This document shows, in pieces, positions 1 through 37,784 of a DNA stretch of 64,000 bases. The notes beneath the pieces were generated by a model, which was not told the origin of the DNA, ran no database searches, and was given only the letters and a program-made list of their open reading frames with translations. The stretch spans positions 129,494 to 193,493 of the forward strand of contig JAXLTW010000001.1 in NCBI GenBank assembly GCA_046329865.1, written 5' to 3'. How positions within the stretch are numbered: position 1 is the first letter of the stretch; the number at the start of each line of letters is the position of its first letter. This DNA is from Chitinophagales bacterium (GTDB lineage Bacteria; Bacteroidota; Bacteroidia; Chitinophagales; JADIYW01). Position numbers and translations under genes: made by a program.

Positions 1-11
1 TATCTCATAAA

Positions 12-977
12 TTATTCTTGTGTAATTTCATTAAAGACACTATCGTTCAAAAGGTAACTACTAGTATTTGATGCATTTTCAACATAAAATCTGTTCTGCT
101 CTAAAATAGCGTGTAATTTTTTTAAATTATAAAACGGAACACTGGGAAAAAGATGATGGTCTAAATGATAATTAGCATTATGCTGAACTAAAAAAAATTG
201 TTCGAATACATTAGCGGTTACATTACGTGCATTATTTAATTCATGCTTCCATGATAAACCAAAATGTTCTGCAATACCACGGAGCCTTAACAAAAATGGC
301 AGGACAGTAAATGCAGGCACAATCCAATATAATAAGTAAATCTTCCAACTGTGACTTAATGTTATAATAGTGTAAAGAATTGCATAATAAAAAACTCGTA
401 ATAATTTATAATATTTTGACACATCAGATTCTGTAGTAACAGACTTATTTTTTGCACCAAAGCGATAAATCTTTTTTAAAAAGTCAAAACTTTTAAGGCC
501 AAACAGGTGCTTGACATATAAAAGCAAAACTTCTCTTTTCTGCTTTGGAAACTCCCATTCTTCCAATCCTTTTTTTAGCATCCAATCAGGATCTTTTTCG
601 GTATTTAGATACTTATGATGGGCAAGATGGGAATCCCTGTACTTATTAGTTGTGACAAACAAAGGAAACGCACAAAAAAAATCTGACAAGAATTGATTTA
701 TATTTTTGTTATTTGTTAGCCTGTAATGGGCGGCTTCATGCATTAATAATAGTAAGGCATGTTGCCTGGAACCGATAATAAATATGGAAATGATTGTAAG
801 TAAGATATTAGAAATTGATACAGCAATGATTATTGTTGCTGCAATGATTAGCCAATCTGATAAAATTGCAAAAACGGACTTGTATGAATTTAATGTTGAA
901 AGTTTCTTCACCTCCCGAAGAATTTTCACCTTTTCTTCTTGAGATATATTTTGTTCAAAAGTAGAAATTATTTCCAT
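12..977 (-). CDS. membrane fatty-acid desaturase family protein (histidine-box di-iron enzyme)
   Basis: 321-aa ORF with three histidine boxes (HEAAHYR, HLAHHKY, HLDHH) and hydrophobic N-terminal segments. Only a 9-nt gap to the upstream same-strand ORF. Confidence 0.8.
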   Translation of the reverse strand: MEIISTFEQNISQEEKVKILREVKKLSTLNSYKSVFAILSDWLIIAATIIIAVSISNILLTIISIFIIGSRQHALLLLMHEAAHYRLTNNKNINQFLSDFFCAFPLFVTTNKYRDSHLAHHKYLNTEKDPDWMLKKGLEEWEFPKQKREVLLLYVKHLFGLKSFDFLKKIYRFGAKNKSVTTESDVSKYYKLLRVFYYAILYTIITLSHSWKIYLLYWIVPAFTVLPFLLRLRGIAEHFGLSWKHELNNARNVTANVFEQFFLVQHNANYHLDHHLFPSVPFYNLKKLHAILEQNRFYVENASNTSSYLLNDSVFNEITQE

Positions 978-986
978 TCTGCTAAT

Positions 987-1704
987 TTATACTAATGAAT
1001 AATCAATAGCTGCATGATTATACATTGCCTTATACAGCTCTACTGTACATTTTGCGGCATATTCACACCATGCCCAATCGTATCCGGAGAGAGGTGCATT
1101 TTCTAAAATATCTAAAATATCATGGCTGTGTCCCTGGTCAAGTTCCCCGTGTAAAATAAAGAAGCTCATTTGTTCCTTATTTAAACCAAGAAGTTGTGCT
1201 GCTTTATTTCCATATTGAACTCCCAATTCTCCACTAACGCCTTCCAGTATATAACCCATTGCCAATCTTGCCACAGGTTGTTTGTGTGCGAGATACATGG
1301 CAAATGACAGATAAGCCTGTGTTGGGATTTGCGGAAATAATATGCGGGGATCAGACCCTTTATATCCTGTGTCGTAAAGGTTTTGAATAATCCATTTCCA
1401 GTGGTCTTGTTCTTCTTCGGCGTGATGAAAGAAATATTCTCTGACTTTAAAAAAGCGGCTGTCTATGTTTACCCCCCCCCCACGCAAAAGAGGAACTGCC
1501 CATATATACCTGATGGAATAATGTGTGAAGCAGGTTATGAAAATGTATAGTCTTAAACTCTTCGGAGTCAATTAATTGAATTATGGAATTACTGTCAGTA
1601 AAAGACTTAAGACAATTGTCAGCTGTATGTTTAAATTGCAGGAAATTACTTTCCGGGTATTGCAAAATAGTTTGTTCAACCTGAGTATAGGTCAAAGTTT
1701 CCAT
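987..1704 (-). pseudogene. heme-oxygenase-like / iron-containing redox enzyme family protein, split by a frameshift in a G10 tract
   Basis: The 85-aa ORF (1447-1704) and the 194-aa ORF (987-1571) overlap in different frames. They join as ...SSSFAWGGG|VNIDSRFFKVREYFFHHAEEEQDHW... if the homopolymer at 1472-1481 is 11 or 8 nt long instead of 10. The helical, His/Glu-rich composition is typical of the HO-like di-iron fold. Confidence 0.6.
1472..1481. repeat. C10 (G10 on the coding strand) homopolymer tract at the frameshift site
   Basis: Read directly: tttaccccccccccacgc. It encodes GGG-GGG-GGG glycines in an otherwise AT-rich gene. Confidence 0.95.
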
Positions 1705-1795
1705 AGAATTAAATGATTTGTAAATCGAATATAATAAATTATTTCTTTTGAAGCAACATGCATGAAGTTAAATTTTATATTGCAGCCTTATTTCC

Positions 1796-1902
1796 CCTTG
1801 CCTTTGTTGGCTTGTAGCCAACAAACAACCATACCGTTGATATCCGGATATTTAAACTTTACAGACAGTAGTTTGTTGGTTGAAAACCAACAAAGGCGCA
1901 AG
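1796..1902. repeat. 107-bp direct repeat, copy A, containing two 10-bp hairpins
   Basis: Aligns by eye with 2602-2707 with only a few mismatches and one 1-nt indel. Hairpins are TTTGTTGGCT-tgt-AGCCAACAAA (1803-1825) and TTTGTTGGTT-gaa-AACCAACAAA (1872-1894). Confidence 0.9.
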
Positions 1903-1930
1903 TTTGCAACGCGTTAGCTGCCGTTTATTA
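1901..1930. repeat. inverted-repeat terminus abutting copy A (AGTTTGCAACGCGTTAGCTGCCGTTTATTA)
   Basis: Its reverse complement matches 2562-2599 (TAATAAACGtCAGCTAACaCG...GTTGCGCAAC). The pair brackets the toxin-antitoxin cassette. Confidence 0.75.
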
Positions 1931-2004
1931 GGGTAAGATTTTCACAATATAAATTTGGAAATTTAAATAGTATGTAATAACTTTGTAATAACTTTAATAT
2001 AAGT

Positions 2005-2250
2005 ATGGACATTGCATTAATATCAATTGGGAACTCAAAGGGCATCAGACTTTCAAAGACCATTCTCGAAAAATATAATATTCAAGACACAATTGAATTG
2101 ATTCTTGAAAAAGGATATATCATTTTAAAACCCAAGTCAAAAGCACGAGAAGGCTGGGATAAAGCATTTAAGAAAATGCACGAAAATGGCGATGACAAAC
2201 TAATCGTATCCGATATTTTCAAAGAAGAAGAATTCGAAGAATGGAATTAA
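2005..2250 (+). CDS. AbrB/MazE/SpoVT-family antitoxin
   Basis: 81 aa. The N-terminal swapped-hairpin-like segment IGNSKGIRLSKTILEKYNI and acidic C-terminus are typical. It overlaps the downstream toxin gene by 10 nt. Confidence 0.75.
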   Translation: MDIALISIGNSKGIRLSKTILEKYNIQDTIELILEKGYIILKPKSKAREGWDKAFKKMHENGDDKLIVSDIFKEEEFEEWN

Positions 2251-2564
2251 AGCAATATCAAATTGTCCTGGTTAATCTGGATCCGACAATTGGAAGTGAA
2301 ATGAAAAAGACTCGTCCATGTATAATTATTTCTCCAGATGAAATGAATAAATATTTGCAGACAATAGTTATTGCCCCAATGACAACTAACTCTAAAAGTT
2401 ATCCAACCCGAGTTGCGGTTAAACACGGTCGGACAAAAGGCTGGGTAGTGCTCGATCAAATAAGAACAATAGACAGACAACGTATAGTGAAAATTCTCGG
2501 CAATTTAACCGAAAAAGAAATTTATAATATCAAAAGTATTATTCATGAAACCTATGTTGCATAA
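2241..2564 (+). CDS. PemK/MazF-family type II toxin (mRNA interferase)
   Basis: 107 aa. Signature-like segments are IVLVNLDPTIGSEMKKTRPCIIISPDEMN and VVLDQIRTIDRQRI. Translationally coupled to the antitoxin. Confidence 0.85.
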   Translation: MELKQYQIVLVNLDPTIGSEMKKTRPCIIISPDEMNKYLQTIVIAPMTTNSKSYPTRVAVKHGRTKGWVVLDQIRTIDRQRIVKILGNLTEKEIYNIKSIIHETYVA

Positions 2565-2599
2565 TAAACGTCAGCTAACACGGTAGCCGTTGCGCAACT
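2562..2599. repeat. inverted-repeat terminus preceding copy B, overlapping the toxin stop codon
   Basis: TAATAAACGTCAGCTAACACGGTAGCCGTTGCGCAACT is the inverse partner of 1901-1930. It contains CTAAC, and the partner contains GTTAG. Confidence 0.75.
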
Positions 2600-2601
2600 A
2601 G

Positions 2602-2707
2602 CCTTGCCTTTGTTGGCTTGTAGCCAACAAACAACCATACCGTTGATATTCGGATATTCATACTTTACAGGCAGTGTATGTTGGTTGAAAACCAACAAAA
2701 ACGCAAG
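2602..2707. repeat. 106-bp direct repeat, copy B
   Basis: Same order and orientation as 1796-1902, with the same two hairpins. Confidence 0.9.
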
Positions 2708-2733
2708 GAACGCAATCCGTTTCTCCTTGTACC

Positions 2734-2859
2734 CTGTCATTTCGACGAGGAACGAGGACCTGTCTGCCCCGCTTGCGGCAGGCAGAGAAATCCTGCTATG
2801 GTTACAGAAAAATATCTGCCAGAAAAAGACAATATTTCTCTCGTTGTTCGAGATGACAG
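2734..2859. repeat. palindromic element of the GTCATTTCGA...GAGAAATC family (two inverted arms, internal GC hairpin)
   Basis: The left arm is CTGTCATTTCGACGAGGAACGAGG. The right arm in reverse complement is CTGTCATCTCGAACAACGAGAGAAAT. Related arms occur at 44102, 44158, 56154, 56187 and 57445. Confidence 0.8.
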
Positions 2860-3074
2860 TTGCCAATAAAAAAATAAACCGCTTCACCTTGCACGCTGTC
2901 AATATAGGAACGAAGCACTCTTTTTATCGATAATGCATTTCTTTCTTCTGTTTTTATACTCCCGATCCTTCGGGTAAAATTTTTTTACTTCTTTTTATGG
3001 AATTTATACGGTTCGTGTCTCTCAATGACTGAGATCAATAAAACAGTATCATTAATCATTTAAAAAGTAACCTT

Positions 3075-3482
3075 ATGAAAAGCATTATCCGTACCATGAC
3101 AGCGATTATTTTGACAACATTGACCTGCACAGCTTCTTATGGCAAAACAACAGCTATGACCACAGACCGGTATCATCTGCTGTTTAATAAAATAGACTAC
3201 AGCATTGTCGGCACCTGGGAAATGAATGGAGTCAATCAGCCCGGCCAACAGCCCGTATTCTGCCAGTTCAATGCCAATGGCACCTTCATTTCCTTTACCT
3301 GCACGCAGGGAGTTTACCATATAACCGGCAGGGGAAAATGGCAGACAAAAGACCGCGTTATCTATATCATTCACGGAGAGGAAAAGTCTGTTCCAATCTT
3401 GTATGAGGCAGAGGAGAACCGGTTGGTTTTCGGGAATCAGGTAACATACACCAAACATAACCCCGTATATGCCAGCCGTTAA
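3075..3482 (+). CDS. small secreted protein, lipocalin-like (hypothetical)
   Basis: 135 aa with an N-terminal signal-like segment (MKSIIRTMTAIILTTLTCTASYG) and a GTWEM motif. Preferred over the antisense 154-aa ORF, which looks non-protein-like. Confidence 0.5.
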   Translation: MKSIIRTMTAIILTTLTCTASYGKTTAMTTDRYHLLFNKIDYSIVGTWEMNGVNQPGQQPVFCQFNANGTFISFTCTQGVYHITGRGKWQTKDRVIYIIHGEEKSVPILYEAEENRLVFGNQVTYTKHNPVYASR

Positions 3483-3628
3483 ACAGAAAAGGATGTCCCA
3501 TTCATTATATTTTATGCGCTTCAATCATTAGATTTGAGTATGAAATGAGCAGGAGTGAATTTGCACACTAAACGAAATGTTTAATAGGCGAATTCCATCT
3601 GCACCGCTAAAAACAATAAAATAAACAG

Positions 3629-4924
3629 ATGAAAAGATATACTCCTTTTATACTCCTTTTCCCGGCAGTGTTCATCATCCTTTCCTGTAAGAAAGAAAAT
3701 ACCCCCGTCAGGGATGCCATTCTTCCCATTGTCTTTGTACATGGCTATTCCGGCAGCGGGGATTCCTATACCAAAATGATCGGGTATTTCCGGGCGAACG
3801 GGTATCCTGCCAATAAATTATATACCTATGACTGGAATACGCTCGACCTGCAGAGTGCACCCAAAAATACCAAGCCGCTGAATGACTTTATACAGGAGGT
3901 GCTCCGGAAAACCGGATACGATAAAGTGAACCTGGTAGGCCATTCGCTGGGCGGCTCACTCACCTTTAACTATTGCAGCAACACAGCATATGCCGGCTCC
4001 GTAAACCGGCTGGCATGGCTGGCACCTTATCTGAAAGACAGAACCAAAATACCGGATTCGGCGATTGCCACGCTGAACCTGCGCAGCAATGCGGACTATG
4101 TGGTAACGGATACCAGTACGATTCCCTTTGCGGTGAACAAAGTTATCCCGGATGTGGATCACAATGAAATTGCTTCCTGCAAAGAATCATTTGTGGAGCT
4201 GTTCAAGTTCTTTAATGACGGCAAGGAACCGGTGACTACTGTTCCTGAAGACGACGTTATTCTGATTTCCGGTAAAGTGGTCAGTTTCCTGGAAAATGCC
4301 GTAAGCTCCGGCAATACCATTGACATTTATGATGTCAGCGCCACCGACGGAACACGACTGTCAACAACGCCTGTCAGTACGCTACACACAGATGCCAAAG
4401 GATATTATCCCGAATTTGCCGCAAAGAAAAACACCTACTACGAGTTCGAGGTTTCGACCGGCAGGGCTGCCGACCGGCCGGTTCACTTTTATTTTGAGCC
4501 GTTCAAAAATTCCAGTCATGTGATTTATCTGCGCACGTTCCCGCCACAAAGCAGTTTCCTGAATCTGGGATTCAACGCCCTTATTCCATTCAGTGAGACG
4601 CAAGGTGTTTCCATCTTTTTTTCCGTTTCCAAAGCACTCTTACTGGGCAAAGATGCCCTGACCATAAACGGATATGATTGCGTCACTGCCGACTTCTCAC
4701 AAAAAGAAATGAATACGCTGGCGTACTTTATGTATGACGAAAACAAAAATAACGTCTCTGATCATTCATCAGTTGCGCTATTCAGTAGTGCCACCACCTT
4801 CAAGGGTATCGATTTTGCGCTACCGATAAACGGATTCTCCACCTATAATTACAACGGAAGGATACTGCATACCCCTAACTGGCCATCTTCCTCAGACGGG
4901 TTGAGTGTTGCACTATTTTATTAA
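3629..4924 (+). CDS. lipoprotein alpha/beta-hydrolase (lipase/esterase) with a C-terminal domain of unknown function
   Basis: 431 aa. Lipobox-like FIILSC. Nucleophile elbow GHSLGG follows VFVHGYSGSGDSY. The C-terminal ~230 aa are beta-rich and unassigned. Confidence 0.75.
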   Translation: MKRYTPFILLFPAVFIILSCKKENTPVRDAILPIVFVHGYSGSGDSYTKMIGYFRANGYPANKLYTYDWNTLDLQSAPKNTKPLNDFIQEVLRKTGYDKVNLVGHSLGGSLTFNYCSNTAYAGSVNRLAWLAPYLKDRTKIPDSAIATLNLRSNADYVVTDTSTIPFAVNKVIPDVDHNEIASCKESFVELFKFFNDGKEPVTTVPEDDVILISGKVVSFLENAVSSGNTIDIYDVSATDGTRLSTTPVSTLHTDAKGYYPEFAAKKNTYYEFEVSTGRAADRPVHFYFEPFKNSSHVIYLRTFPPQSSFLNLGFNALIPFSETQGVSIFFSVSKALLLGKDALTINGYDCVTADFSQKEMNTLAYFMYDENKNNVSDHSSVALFSSATTFKGIDFALPINGFSTYNYNGRILHTPNWPSSSDGLSVALFY

Positions 4925-6431: not shown

Positions 6432-9400
6432 TTAGTTAACAAGTCGCAAGTACTTTTCTACTAAATTTTTGTAAAAAGGTCGCATGGAGGGAGGTACCGT
6501 CTGATAGATTTCCAGTGCTGATTTGCGTTTTTGGAGGTATTCTTCTAGGCTGGGCGGCAATTTCCGGGCTATCTCGATGCCGGATTTAGACTGTCTTTTC
6601 TCGTCTTCCTCCTGATCCCGCTGTGCCTTTTCAAACTCTAACAGCCTGGTTTGTATCTCTTTATGCCGTTGCAGGGATTCTTTGGAAAGCCTTTTTACCG
6701 CCAATTCCTTTTCTATCTCGTCCATCTTCTTCATCATATCGTCCACGCCGCCACTCTCTTTCTGCTGCTGGCTCATTTTTTCTTTCATTTGGCGCAGCGC
6801 TTCACGGATGGCCGCCTGTTTTTGAACGGCATCTGCAAAATCTTTACCCATCTGTTTCGGGTCTTTGCCTTTCTGCATGCCTTCCTGCATCTTCTGGAGC
6901 TGGTCGCCCAATTGTTTTTGCAGCTCGCTCATAGAGGGCTTTTGTCCTTCACCGCCGGGCTTATTGCAAGAGCCGCTGCCCGGTTTTTTGGATTTCTGCT
7001 GCTGTTGTAAGTTGTCTAGTGATTCGCTGAGCATCAGTGCCAAATTATTGGCAGCAGTCATCACTAACTGCTGGGCCACACCCGTCACCGGTTTGTTTCT
7101 GGCTTCCAGGTTATCCAGTGCTTTTTTCATTTCCCGGTTCAGTTTATACATTTCATCGGAAATAAAGGACTGTAACTGAAACTGCCGTTTGCCTAATGTC
7201 TGAAGCGTGTCTTCGATTAATTTGGCATCGTCTCGCAGGTCAAATTGCTTCTGCATTAACTGGACATATTTCGGACTTTCGGTTTCCGTTTTCTTTAACT
7301 CATTCATCAGCTGCTCCTGATCGAATGACAACTTCACGAGGTTTTCCAGCAACTGTCTTATCATCTTGATGTCTTCCGCATTCTGGTCCATCTGCATTTT
7401 ATCCAGATCATTTTTCATTTTCTGCGCCATCTTTTTCATTTTCTGAGATGATGACTTCTGAGACTTGGATGCTTTATCATTTTGCTTCTGCTCCAGTTCG
7501 TCACTGCTTTGCTCCATATCCTGCTTAATATCCTCACTTTGTTCCTGGTTGCCTTTGGTGTCGAGCTTGTTATCATTCTCCTTATTGAGTTTTTCCATCT
7601 GCTTCAGGTTCTCTTTGATGTCATCCATCTTTTTGTTCAGCTCTTCCTGTTTTTGCTGTAACTGATCCTGCGGTGCTGAATTATTTTTTGTTTGCTCACT
7701 CAGTTTTTCCTGTTCTTTCGCCAGTTCATTCAGTTTGTCAATCGTTTCCTGTGCCTTCTGTTCCAGTTGCAACTGCTTGAAAAGTTGCTGCATTTTCTCC
7801 AACTCCGATTTCAGGTCCTTATTGCTCATCTCCATCTTATCAAGATTCTCAAACGTGTTTTTCTGTTCCATCTTCTGCAGGATATCTTCTATCTGCTTCA
7901 TCAGGTCTTTCATTTCATCGCTCATCAGGTCTTTCATCATTTCCTGCAGCTTCTCCTGTTTTTGCAGAATTTCGTCGTCCGGTTTCTTGAACTCTTCCTG
8001 GTTCTTTAAGTTTTCCTCGTATTTGTCTTTTATCTGCTTCAGCTCTTCCTGCAGCTCATCGTGTTTCTTCTGTATCTGTTCGAGTTGTTTCTTATCTTCC
8101 CAGGAAAGGGTGCTTTTCGTCAGAATCTTTTCCTTCATTTCCTTAATCATAGAAGCCAGTTGCTGTGCTTCCTTCGCCGCATCGGACAAATCGGATTTAA
8201 TATCTTCGTTTTGCTGGAATTCCTGTTTTTCCAGTTCACGGACAGTCGGCTTGTCATAGGCAAATGCCTGTGATTTTGCGGACTTCGGCCCGGAAACACC
8301 ATCGTTGTCCCATACCTCAAAATAGTAATCCATCTTATCGCCGGGTGATAATTGATACTTTGAGAAATCAATCTGATAATTGAAATCAGAGATGGATTTG
8401 TTGGCTAATGGAAGCAACTGTTTTTTGGCTTCCCTCACATTCCCTTTTTCATCTTTTATGGAATAATGGAATTCCAGTTTAGACAAACCGTAATCATCTG
8501 CCACGGCACCGACAAATACAGAAAAATCTTTTTGTGCAGAATCCTGAATCCGTTCCATATTGATGGAAGGAAAATTATCAGGAGTGGCAGAAATGGTAAA
8601 CGAAACGGAATCGCCTTTATCCACTTCCCGGTTGGAAACAAACACGGTGTAGCGGGTATCTCTGAGTATTTTTCTGGAAAAGGAAAATTTGTCCTTGCCT
8701 GTTTTTTGTGAAGCATAACTTGCTCCGTCCAGGTTTATTTTCACTTCATCGGTTCCGGACGTTTCAAAATTCCAGTTGACCGTGGTGCCTGCGGGCACGA
8801 CAAGGTCTCCGATGTTTTTTACGGATTCATTGGTTCGATTGATGTAAGCAGGGTAAGTCAACTGTGTTGTAAAATTGGCAATAAGAGGTTTTGGGAGCAC
8901 CCGGATCTTAAATTCCTCACTGTTAAAATCACTTGCCGTAAAATAAAACGTCAGCTCTTTCTGAACATTGGTGAAGCGATACGAAAACTTATCAGCAGCT
9001 GTTTTCTCCATCTTATAACTCTTGCCATTTTCGACAAGGTACACTTCATTGGGAACGGTCTTTCCCTTTACAGACATCTTTATTTCCATGTCTTCATACT
9101 GGAGCATCTTCAACTGCTTGTTTTCCAGTATAAATTCAAAAGGCGCTTTTTTCGCAAAGGTCTTATTTGGGTTCAAAAGGCGTGTGCTGCTTTCTTTCAG
9201 CACATTGGGAGCGGCTATCAGTAAAAATAAAATCAGGAAAAACGGCGGCAATGCATACTTCAGGTATTTCTTATTCTCCTGCAGGTTAACCGCATTTGAA
9301 AAAGGCACCAATTTTATGGATTCGGTTTTCTGATGGATACTGGCTTCTATCAGATCTCTGTTATAGGCGTTTTGCGACTGTTGTTTCAGTTGTAAAATAT

Positions 9401-14788: not shown

Positions 14789-17700
14789 CTATCTCAATAA
14801 CGTAAACGCTCCTTTTACAGAAAAAGGGTTGTTGTCTTTCTTTATACCTTCCGCTACATACATATAACTATCCACCGGGCAGGGAGTGCCTTTATACGTT
14901 CCATCCCAACTTTTGGATAAATCCGCCGTTTCGAAAACCATTTCTCCCCATCTGTTGTAAATACGCAGCACATAAGATGCAACATTGACCGGAATGAAAT
15001 TAAACAAATCGTTATACCCGTCGTTGTTAGGCGAGAATGCCGTAGGAATGAAGATATCACAATTGAGCACAATACGAATAGAATCCGAACTCTTGCAGCC
15101 CGATTTAAAGCCGGTAAAGATGACTGGCGACTCGCTGCCATCAATAGTCGTTGGATTCACGGTAGTCCCATTGCTCCAGAACACACTGTCATACGTTCCT
15201 CCCGCCACAATGCTTCTCAGTTCTCCCGGACACATAATGACGCTATCGTCCAATGTTATCCGTGGTAATGGCAGTACAGTGAAATTTTTAGAAATGCTGT
15301 CGGTTCCGCAATTCTTATTTTGCACCGTTAGCCGTATGATAAAATTTCCCTCTGCCGTATAGGTATGAACCGGGTTCTTATCAGTAGCATTTTTACCATC
15401 TCCGAACAACCATGCATAGTTTATGTTGTCTCCTTTGGAGTTGTCAAAAAACTGTGCCGGACTTCGAAAGCAGACAGAAGCCGGAATTATCATATCCGGA
15501 ATAAAGGTATCCCGCAAGGATAAAATCCTGTTGAACGTATCCCTGCATCCGGAGTTTGTTGTTACAATAAGAAGGACATCGTAATTGGTTATCTGATTCA
15601 GATTAAATACAGGCTCTTTCTGTTGTGAGGAAAACACACCGCCATTAATACTCCAGCTATGTTGTACGATGCTGTCAGGAGCAGCAACCGCTGACGTGTT
15701 GATGAATGCCGTAGGCTTATTACTGCAGTATTTATCCGTAGCAAAATCCGCTATCGGCTTTGGTTTTAAGATTAACGTCGTAGCAGCGGCATTTGTACAA
15801 CCATTCTTAAACACATTGATAGAAATCGGATTTCTGGTTCCGTTCACACTGATGCTGTTGCTGGTCTCATTGGTATTCCAGCGCAGTGAATCATATTGAT
15901 TCGGAACAGAGAGCACCGCAACACTTCCATTACATAAAGGAAGGCTTGAAGGTAAAGAAACGGAAGGTTTTGGTTTTATAACGATATTCTTTATAATACT
16001 GTCCTGTCCACAAATAGCATGATTGACGACCATCTTCACTGGAAATGTTCCGTCCAGAGGATAGGTGAAAGATGGATTGTTGGCAGAAGAAGTGGTATTG
16101 GCAGCATCACGGAAAAACCAGGTAAAGCCCGTGTAATTTCCGGTAGATGTATTGGAGAACTGCACCGGGCTAAGCTGACAGTTGCTCACAGGAACTGTAA
16201 AATTTGGTTTCAGCGAATCTATAATGGAAACAGATTTTAGCACCGTATCCCTGCAACCGAAATCAGACACGGCAACCAACTGCACATTATAGTTCGCATT
16301 ACCCGGATATATGGTAACAGGATTCGCATTGGTGGAGTCTATACTGCCGTTTCCAAAATCCCAGTATAATTTCGGGATACTGCCACTTGAAATGGTAGAT
16401 TGATTGGTATATAATGCCTTTATGCCATAACAAACCTGACGCAGGCTAAAATTAGCGGTTGGCTTTGGCTTCAGTTGTAAGGCAGCAGATGCAGATGCGG
16501 CACATCCATTCTTATACACATCCACCCGGATTGGGTTAATGCTGCCGTTTACACTGATACTATTCCCGGTTTGATTGGTATTCCAACGAATGGAATCAAA
16601 TATATTGGGAACCGTCAACGTGGTGGTCGTTCCGTTACAGAAAGAGACACTGGACGGCAGACTCACGGTTGGTTTTTGCTTGATGATGATATTTTTTTGT
16701 ATACTGTCCTTACCACAGATGGCATGATTAACAACAAGTTTCACCGGAAAGACACCATCGAGCGGATAGGTAAATGTTGGGTTGACCGCTGTTGAGGTAG
16801 AATTTCCTGCATCACCAAAATGCCAGACATAGCCGGTATAATTTCCGGTGGATGTATTAGCAAATGGAACGGCGCTGAGCTGACAATTATTGGCGGGAAA
16901 GGTGAAGTTGGGTTTAAGAGAATCAATGATAGAAATAGTCTTGACAACGGTATCCCTGCATCCATTATTTGAGACGGCGATCAACTGAACATTGTAATTT
17001 CCATTGGCCGGATAAGTAGTGGTTGGGTTGCTATTTACAGAATCTATCACCCCGTTTCCTAAATTCCAGTAGTAGTTGGAAACCGTTCCTCCGCTGATGG
17101 TGGTGAGATTGGTATACAATGCCCTTATACCGTAACAAACCTGCCTCAGGTTGAAATCTGCGATTGGCCCGGGTGCTATAGTCAACGATTTGCTGACGGT
17201 CCCGAGGCATCCTCTGGTGGTTACTACTTTCAGGACTATGGGATACGTACCGGGAGTGGCAATGGAGGCCGACGTATTTTGGGTGAAGACACTATCTGCC
17301 CCTACCTTCCACCGCCATTGATTGATGTCGTTCAGTTCGGAAAATGACGCATCTGTTAATGTCACCTTTACACCTGCGCAAACATTATTCTGGCTCATCA
17401 CAAAATCCGGTGTCACTTTCGGATTCAGCTTAATATACATTCTGCCTGTATCGGCGCAATCGGTTCCCCGGTTGGTGATTAAGGTAATTTTGTAAACGCC
17501 CGTATCCGTGTAGGTAAATGTGGGGTTTTTCAAATCGGAGGTATCATCTGTTCTTCCTGCTATACCAAAATCCCAAAGTTGATTGAGGACGGTGCCGGTC
17601 GTTAGATTTTGAAAATCGATGGTTTTGGACGAACAAAAGACATACGTGGAATCATTGATCTTTCCGATAGATCCGGGGTCCAGAATCGCCGCGGGTTTTG

Positions 17701-37655: not shown

Positions 37656-37680
37656 AAACTTTCAGTAATAATTGAAAGTT
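37656..37680. promoter_or_regulatory. candidate operator: AAACTTTCA-N8-TGAAAGTT palindrome (site 1)
   Basis: Read directly. It shares identical half-sites and spacer length with the site at 37759-37784. Confidence 0.4.
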
Positions 37681-37758
37681 GTGAATAATATTAAGCCAAC
37701 ATTTTAGTAAGCATACCGCCAATTATTCATAATCACTGGCTAATATCGAAATGGAAAT

Positions 37759-37784
37759 AAACTTTCAATTTTGTTTGAAAGTTT
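37759..37784. promoter_or_regulatory. candidate operator: AAACTTTCA-N8-TGAAAGTTT palindrome (site 2, 9/9 perfect)
   Basis: Read directly. It ends 43 nt upstream of ATG 37828. Centre-to-centre distance to site 1 is about 103 bp. Confidence 0.4.

Follow-up and report, generated by a model that had tools for sequence, protein, structure and literature searches.

In a 64,000-nt stretch of the genome of a Chitinophagales bacterium (contig JAXLTW010000001.1; the whole stretch is referred to as the window), a toxin-antitoxin (TA) operon of the MazEF type lies between two direct copies of a 107-bp hairpin-rich repeat. Judged by its sequence, the repeat is a REPIN, an inverted doublet of GTAG-tagged repetitive extragenic palindrome (REP) hairpins, and the short inverted segments at the inner sides of the two copies resemble the ends of an integron cassette. 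The features of the locus are as follows, with a slash inside a sequence marking a boundary.

1796-1902, no strand assigned: REPIN copy 1, made of a forward REP hairpin (1803-1825) separated by a 42-nt spacer from a reverse GTAG-tagged REP (GTAG 1868-1871, hairpin 1872-1894, foot GGCG)
1903-1912, plus strand: right arm, an L'-like block TTTGCAACGC that pairs with 2589-2599 in the fold of the joined halves
1913-1930, plus strand: R'-type core GTTAGCT (1913-1919) and its extension, pairing at 17/18 positions with 2562-2579; putative cassette boundary G/TT at 1913/1914
1973-1992, plus strand: conserved motif TGTAATAACTTTGTAATAAC just upstream of the antitoxin gene, a putative operator/promoter region
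2005-2250, plus strand: MazE/AbrB-like antitoxin gene, 81 aa, with a weak MazE_antitoxin match (E = 0.027), overlapping the toxin gene by 10 nt
2241-2564, plus strand: PemK/MazF family toxin gene, 107 aa (Pfam PF02452, PemK_toxin, E = 4.4e-30)
2562-2579, plus strand: stop codon and R''-type core AGCTAAC (2573-2579), the inverted partner of 1913-1930
2580-2601, plus strand: left arm, composed of an unpaired 9-nt segment ACGGTAGCC (2580-2588), an L''-like block GTTGCGCAACT (2589-2599) and AG
2602-2707, no strand assigned: REPIN copy 2, whose second REP is decayed (GTAG gone, a stem mismatch, foot GGC changed to AAC)
2708-2725, plus strand: possible decayed right arm, GAACGCAATCC followed by GTTTCTC, in which GCAATCCGTT (2712-2721) matches GCAACGCGTT (1906-1915) at 8/10 positions in register, the likeness ending after GTT

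The operon and the two repeat copies

A small antitoxin gene that overlaps a downstream PemK/MazF gene is the arrangement of type II TA modules (MazEF/PemIK). The toxin assignment relies on Pfam, the NCBIfam MazF matches being below cut-off, and a homologue of the antitoxin in a RefSeq plasmid is annotated as AbrB/MazE/SpoVT. Homologues of the toxin occur by the thousands in Bacteroidota metagenomes, the best 120 listed being mostly 82-91% identical, and a scan of IMG/VR with the toxin gave only homologues of 48-51% identity. The motif TGTAATAACTTTGTAATTACA is kept in all homologous cassettes about 10-30 nt before the antitoxin start codon and is present in the window as two direct repeats of GTAATAACTTT; it is probably the autoregulation operator of the operon. 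A promoter and terminator scan showed no enrichment.

The two repeat copies (107 and 106 bp, period 806 bp) are about 93% identical overall and differ by seven substitutions and one indel, with 95% identity between 1796-1869 and 2602-2675 and 91% between 1871-1902 and 2676-2707. The pattern TTTGTTGGYT-NNN-ARCCAACAAA is found four times in the window (1803, 1872, 2609 and 2677), twice per copy, where shuffled sequences would give 0.05 matches. A perfect 10-bp stem with a 3-nt loop, the geometry of a REP, is immediately preceded by GTAG at 1868-1871, and the arms of copy 1 (1800-1829 and 1868-1897) are 83% complementary. REPINs are inverted pairs of REP hairpins that are non-autonomous and are moved in trans by a Y1 HUH enzyme, the REP-associated tyrosine transposase (RAYT). 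The 107-bp unit is called a REPIN because its forward REP is followed, after a spacer of 42 nt, by a reverse REP with a GTAG tag, and the view that it is itself a repeat of the attC family is not supported. Neither a repeat search nor a scan with the hairpin pattern detected a third copy in the window.

An earlier, sequence-only reading of this DNA had named a MazEF-type module at 2005-2564, bracketed by two near-identical copies of about 107 bp that each carry two 10-bp hairpins with nearly equal stems. The genes, the copies and the hairpins are all as described there, with the antitoxin as the weaker of the two protein matches. The module had been placed exactly between the repeats; the operon begins 102 nt after copy 1 and ends 37 nt before copy 2. 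The AT-richness of region 1-2600, estimated by eye, is confirmed by a GC content of 0.30-0.37 in 1-3000 compared to 0.38-0.49 elsewhere in the window.

Probable cassette ends in the window and in other Bacteroidota

Both gaps between operon and REPINs contain sequences that are inverted copies of each other. The 18 nt starting at 1913 (GTTAGCTGCCGTTTATTA) are complementary at 17 positions to 2562-2579 (TAATAAACGTCAGCTAAC, the stop codon and the next 15 nt), and a second inverted block, AGTTTGCAAC (1901-1910), pairs with GTTGCGCAACT. The cores AGCTAAC and GTTAGCT keep the AAC and GTT triplets and are complementary to each other at 7/7 positions. The upstream half of the site reads REPIN, TTTGCAACGC and GTTAGCT, with nothing R''- or L''-like on its left, while the downstream half reads AGCTAAC, ACGGTAGCC, GTTGCGCAACT, AG and REPIN, then GAACGCAATCC-GTTTCTC. 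When left arm, repeat and right arm were joined in silico, a single hairpin was predicted (-36.8 kcal/mol, z = -4.84) and 0/200 shuffles folded as well. The sequence-only reading had seen that the cassette-proximal flanks are mutually inverted, that their cores differ from attC cores by one mismatch each and that a complete unit with both arms would form an imperfect palindrome of about 170 bp; all three points are borne out here.

Twelve further contexts of toxin homologues were examined (L-numbers such as L001, L016 or L058 designate the homologous or REP-bearing loci). Related MazEF cassettes, with 85-91% toxin identity, open with G/TTAGC-type cores and close with GCTAAC-type cores. The distance from a GTTAGC-type core to the toxin stop codon downstream of it is 652-656 nt in eight contexts, where the GCTAAC-type core ends 15 nt past that codon. 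For the seven cassettes with recognisable ends, the terminal 18 nt pair in 83% of cells, against 15-47% when they are slid, and four end positions show compensatory changes (e.g., AGCTAAC/GTTAGCT, AGGTAAC/GTTACCT and CGCTAAC/GTTAGCG), a number reached by 7/500 shuffles. The cassettes of L056 and L057 are the same behind unrelated upstream DNA, and their identity starts exactly at GTTAGCGG. Homology between the window and L068 starts at C-GTTAGCTG, position 1912. A cassette boundary at G/TT is indicated by L056 compared with L057, by L068, by the core spacing and by the covariation. An R' core at GTTAGG/GTTAAG in L051 and L054 was considered and rejected, as comparison with L072 places the core 14 nt upstream. 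The TA operons of L066 and L067 have decayed or absent cores.

The sites that flank the homologous cassettes are informative as well. In L068, whose toxin is 90% identical and which has the same AGCTAAC/GTTAGCT cores as the window, the flanking sites of 86 and 132 nt fold with a closing R''/R' stem. A site family YTAAC-AGCAC-CTAC...GTAG-CTGCMAAAC-GTTA, with conserved boxes and a variable centre, is present in L056, L057, L072 and the Chryseobacterium plasmid NZ_CP041688.1. The cassette of L056 and that of the plasmid are each part of a same-strand array that begins next to a tyrosine recombinase gene (77-892 in L056, and 16032-17075 in the plasmid, L074). The two recombinases are orthologous, 47% identical and encoded on the same strand as the cassettes, and they score high enough to reach the threshold of NF040815 ("site-specific tyrosine recombinase/integron integrase"). 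From their two-piece, below-cut-off match to the integron-integrase model TIGR02249 they appear to be devoid of the IntI-specific insertion, and the two arrays may represent a distinct integron-like platform in Bacteroidota. Mobile elements are nested in these arrays: a 1360-bp IS110-family element (6456-7815) sits inside the attC-like site downstream of the MazEF cassette in L056, the L057 site being uninterrupted, and two long gaps between cassettes of the plasmid array hold genes for an IS110 transposase and for a group II intron reverse transcriptase. Together, the cores, the covariation, the switching neighbours and the arrays support the proposal, made earlier for the inner inverted flanks, that these are integron-type cassette ends.

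Two homologous loci bear on what can occupy the centre of such a site. The apical hairpin of the L068 attC is GCCTTGCC-GCT-GGCGCAGGC, and its equivalent in the window is GCCTTGCC, the REP core and GGCGCAAG. This alignment is better than 491/500 shuffles, and therefore the REP core sits at the position of the L068 loop. In L058 (4012-4731 and 5341-6559), a homologous MazEF cassette lies between direct complete copies of a 215-bp palindromic unit, the upstream one replacing the R' core of the cassette, and a RAYT gene (99 bits) is found between two halves of the same unit, 1.1 kb from the cassette. Proximity to a RAYT gene as a general rule for these cassettes was rejected, since the RAYT of L067 has its own unrelated REPs and the TA operon there is without cores.

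Competing readings of the locus

The REP hairpin of the window belongs to a dispersed family. In an exact scan of one genome per species it was found in 46 loci, about 38 of them in metagenome-assembled genomes (MAGs) of Chitinophagales, Sphingobacteriales or Saprospiraceae, often several times per MAG and often at contig ends. A GTAG-like tag (G[TC][AGT]G: GTAG, GCAG, GTGG or GTTG) directly precedes the stem in 37/59 copies and a GGCR foot follows it in 36/59, so that the copies are asymmetric. In L031, a RAYT open reading frame of 170 aa (NCBIfam NF047646, REP-associated tyrosine transposase, 98 bits for a cut-off of 80) lies between one forward and two reverse REPs of this family, and homologous RAYT genes adjoin the same REPs in L048 and L006. 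Tandem clusters of the family occur in L048, L046, L019 and L006. The complete 107-bp doublet, with the same spacer and without the arms, also occurs in L017/L064, next to a gene for a GNAT acetyltransferase, and in L016, in other surroundings, and a scan of metagenomes for the doublet gave one match, the L017 locus. Complementary flanks of the arm-REPIN-arm kind were not found beyond chance at the other REP loci. The signature of the hairpins matches that of GTAG-tagged REPs (PMC3733652 and PMC8266576), and the action of RAYTs on their REPs is established for E. coli, Stenotrophomonas and Marinomonas (PMC8266576). The sequence-only reading had treated the 107-bp repeats as attC-type and had named a REP/BIME-like pair (bacterial interspersed mosaic elements) as the alternative. 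The inner inverted flanks follow the former proposal as cassette ends; the 107-bp core follows the latter, being a REP doublet of a singly dispersed, RAYT-flanking family.

Other palindromes were noticed near members of this family. Just right of REPIN copy 2, at 2734-2859, a second palindromic element has arms CTGTCATTTCGA and TCGAGATGACAG that are 92% complementary and enclose a GC-rich hairpin CTGTCTGCCCCGCTTGCGGCAGGCAG; similar 'gtcattccga...gaggaatc' motifs lie beside REPs in L050 and L013. Another palindromic repeat, TTGACAGGTG...AGCTAAACACCTGTCAA, is next to REPs in L022, L032 and L034 and recurs in several Chitinophagales MAGs.

With moderate confidence, we read the locus as a lone integron-type MazEF cassette with an attC-like site built around a REPIN. 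On this reading the cassette runs from the G/TTAGCT core at 1913, through the MazE-like antitoxin and the PemK/MazF endoribonuclease toxin with their own promoter region, to the AGCTAAC core at 2573-2579, and then into an attC-like palindrome. In this lineage the centre of the palindrome is a REPIN of the type spread by RAYTs in Chitinophagales genomes. The palindrome exists only as two halves, REPIN and right arm upstream, left arm and REPIN downstream, which when joined give the hairpin of about 155-170 nt that a circular form of the cassette would carry.

Several observations weigh against this interpretation. Each core deviates at one position from the RYYYAAC/GTTRRRY consensus, the unpaired spacer is asymmetric (9 nt on one side, 2 nt on the other), and the site as it stands (2566-2728) folds without R''-R' pairing. 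Neither site of the window is a complete attC, the upstream one lacking the left arm and the downstream one having a decayed right arm; the term attC-like is used here on the grounds of cores, pairing and folding, not of a covariance-model score. The recombinases of the related arrays score 199-207 bits on TIGR02249, for which the cut-off is 265, and match it in two pieces, and no canonical IntI is tied to these cassettes. WP_143853951.1 is an example of the Xer-like recombinases of such arrays. None of the collections scanned held another cassette with an arm-REPIN-arm site, and the suggestion that a REPIN may serve as an attC core draws on the window locus and on the L058 analogue only. The searches for recombinase and RAYT genes in the source genome cover its 64-kb window.

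Within that window, no tyrosine recombinase was detected in six-frame open reading frames with IntI1 and Xer-like probes (phmmer, E <= 10) and no RAYT gene is encoded. A scan for canonical core pairs 50-200 nt apart gave only AT-rich chance pairs near 27.0-27.2 kb, Rfam gave no match at gathering thresholds for the whole window and, in E-value mode, one sub-threshold chance miRNA match for 1700-3100. An attC-site cluster without an integron integrase (CALIN) is defined by at least two attC sites within 4 kb, and a complete integron by an IntI with its specific extra domain nearby. The window offers two half-sites and no recombinase, and has no array, complete attC, intI or further attC-like site. 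The locus resembles an integron cassette remnant, yet in the window it falls short of what is formally required of a complete attC, a CALIN or an integron.

This poverty of the window could be taken to favour an ordinary chromosomal MazEF operon next to which two REPINs inserted independently, the inner inverted repeats being part of the operon, for instance remnants of a terminator or operator, rather than recombination sites. Such insertions are common in intergenic DNA near gene ends, the 107-bp REPIN stands alone elsewhere, the window contributes no recombinase or further attC-like site, and L066 and L067 illustrate TA operons with decayed or absent cores. We nevertheless judge this account unlikely. 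Two independent insertions are not expected to place both REPINs in the same position relative to the arm blocks, and the account does not anticipate end cores that are conserved and covary across lineages, the same cassette with different neighbours switching exactly at GTT, or relatives that lie between canonical attC hairpins and in arrays.

Two further readings make the whole segment a transposable unit. The left and right ends used by single-strand Y1 (HUH) transposases are two copies of one hairpin element in direct orientation, and REPIN-TA-REPIN could accordingly be a composite that a RAYT mobilises. The repeats of the locus lie in direct orientation, RAYTs act on such REPs (PMC8266576), and in L058 a homologous TA pair lies between direct REPIN-like units 1.1 kb from a RAYT gene. 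Near-identical strains vary only at the left junction, the right one being constant, so that movement of the whole unit is not seen; moreover, the GTAG tag of copy 2 is lost and no second copy of the unit was found, all of which makes a RAYT composite quite improbable. Marginally less probable still is that the inverted arms of 30 and 38 nt are the terminal inverted repeats of a TA element, similar to a miniature inverted-repeat transposable element, that landed between tandem REPINs. Inverted repeats are indeed present at both ends and REPs of this family do cluster in tandem (L048, L046, L019 and L006). However, when the window and all loci fetched were searched with mismatches allowed, the four arm blocks turned up at this cassette only, and instead of multicopy terminal repeats with a convincing target-site duplication, there is at most a duplicated AG. 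In addition, the relatives keep only the inner 18 nt while the outer blocks vary by host, which fits attC sites rather than transposon ends.

Origin of the split site and its surroundings

For the cassette with a REPIN-cored site, two routes to the present split arrangement can be envisaged. In route (a), a circular cassette with an arm-REPIN-arm site would have recombined by a single crossover with a chromosomal REPIN, which would duplicate the REPIN. In favour of this route, both outer arms are missing, and the downstream left arm has a better pairing partner in the upstream right arm (5 + 4 bp) than in the downstream flank (5 bp). In addition, the eight differences between the copies are all confined to the final 59 of the 107 nt ((59/107)^8 ~0.009), and L058 provides an analogue, a homologous cassette between direct 215-bp RAYT-linked units. 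In route (b), the cassette would once have stood in an array, between two consecutive attC-like sites of one type, and the array would later have been cut back at the REPIN edge. This route is favoured by the occurrence of related cassettes in arrays and by the 8/10 match of GCAATCCGTT to GCAACGCGTT that stops after GTT (rough p ~0.003, post hoc). Routes (a) and (b) are not separable on present evidence.

The TA pair would serve as an addiction or stabilising module for the adjoining AT-rich DNA. Because no recombinase is encoded within 64 kb, the cassette has probably become fixed or can be moved only in trans. As a broader and rather doubtful proposition, REPINs might become the structural core of attC-type sites, and cassettes with such a core could enter or leave chromosomes by recombination between REPINs (homologous or by RAYT), without an integron integrase.

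With integron cassettes the locus shares the inverse core triplets (AAC...GTT, each core being one position off the consensus), the G/TT boundary, a 5′ end that pairs with the cassette's own R'' region, and homologues that are flanked by attC hairpins or belong to same-strand arrays in which mobile elements are nested in attC sites. TA cargo is common in integron cassettes (PMC8618304), TA cargo with its own promoter is typical of them, the definitions used are those of PMC4889954 and PMC8618304, and integrons and CALINs are already known in Bacteroidota (PMC8618304). The locus differs in having two half-sites only, below the two-attC rule for a CALIN, a 107-bp REPIN core in a 153-170-nt site with a 9/2-nt asymmetric spacer, and no IntI, the recombinases beside related arrays being without a full integron-integrase match. 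With the REP, BIME, REPIN and RAYT systems (TnpA-REP, REPtrons) it shares the 10-bp stem, the 3-nt loop, the 5′ GTAG, the inverted doublets with a spacer, the dispersed and clustered copies and the RAYT genes flanked by inverted REPs. The window REPs resemble the "group 3" REPs (PMC8266576) and the GTAG-tagged REPs (PMC3733652). Here the doublet differs in occupying the interior of an attC-like palindrome and in having a copy on either side of a cassette, in a phylum, Bacteroidota, that is little covered in the REPIN literature searched. Elements that nest in attC sites, such as the IS1111-attC group of the IS110 family and group IIC-attC introns, likewise place a mobile element inside an attC, as in L056 and the plasmid array; the REPIN differs from them in being a palindrome that is not autonomous and depends on a Y1 HUH enzyme acting in trans for its movement. 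The literature, which was incompletely covered, yielded no paper on REPs located inside attC sites.

Two known mobile-DNA systems are thus nested in one 900-bp locus, and one cassette family appears with different palindromes according to host: a classical 86-nt attC in L068, a REPIN-cored site in the window and a RAYT-linked 215-bp unit in L058. The origin of attC sites and of their host specificity in chromosomal arrays is an open question of integron biology. If the broader proposition on REPINs as attC cores is correct, two single-strand-hairpin systems that have so far been treated separately would be linked, and one way in which host-specific attC sites arise would be indicated. Were the pattern of host-dependent palindromes general, host REPINs would be a source or a remodeller of cassette recombination sites and would open an integrase-independent route into chromosomes. 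Should the locus be due to a single REPIN insertion into a decaying cassette, it would be a curiosity. In practical terms, an attC scan may split or overlook the sites in which integron-type cassettes of Chitinophagales can hide.

Variation among close relatives concerns the left edge of the locus. An identical toxin is encoded in four metagenome contigs (L001-L004), of which L003 and L004 match the window at the locus. L001 and L002 have the same REPIN1-TA-REPIN2 segment and right flank, including, in L001, an identical downstream lipocalin-like gene. On their left, REPIN1 directly adjoins a truncated paralogue of the lipase gene located downstream, the junction being ...GTACATGGC/CCTTGCC. 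The outer edge of REPIN1 is therefore a junction in two contexts, with two assemblies for each form. This variable junction fits recombination between dispersed REPINs or cleavage by a RAYT. It might conceivably also be a mis-join within the 48 nt common to the copies, because L065 breaks within these 48 nt.

In the L001/L002 strains, positions 1-1140 of L002 correspond to 2830-3750 of the window (lipocalin-like gene, lipase gene and the region upstream), forming a tandem duplication in which REPIN1 marks the exact point, after codon 39, where the first lipase copy is cut off. Further left in the window, a run of 10 C (1472-1481) splits a Haem_oxygenas_2-like gene (PF14518) into two frames on the minus strand (open reading frames 987-1571 and 1447-1704). 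The same run has 8 C in L003 and L004, and 9 C would restore a single frame; the run reflects either phase variation of the tract or a sequencing error in the homopolymer. Elsewhere in the window, a 72-nt direct repeat (16392-16463 and 17097-17168) has 79% identity at a distance of 705 nt, and 37656-37784 contains a 25-nt inverted repeat with 84% complementarity, its arms 79 nt apart.

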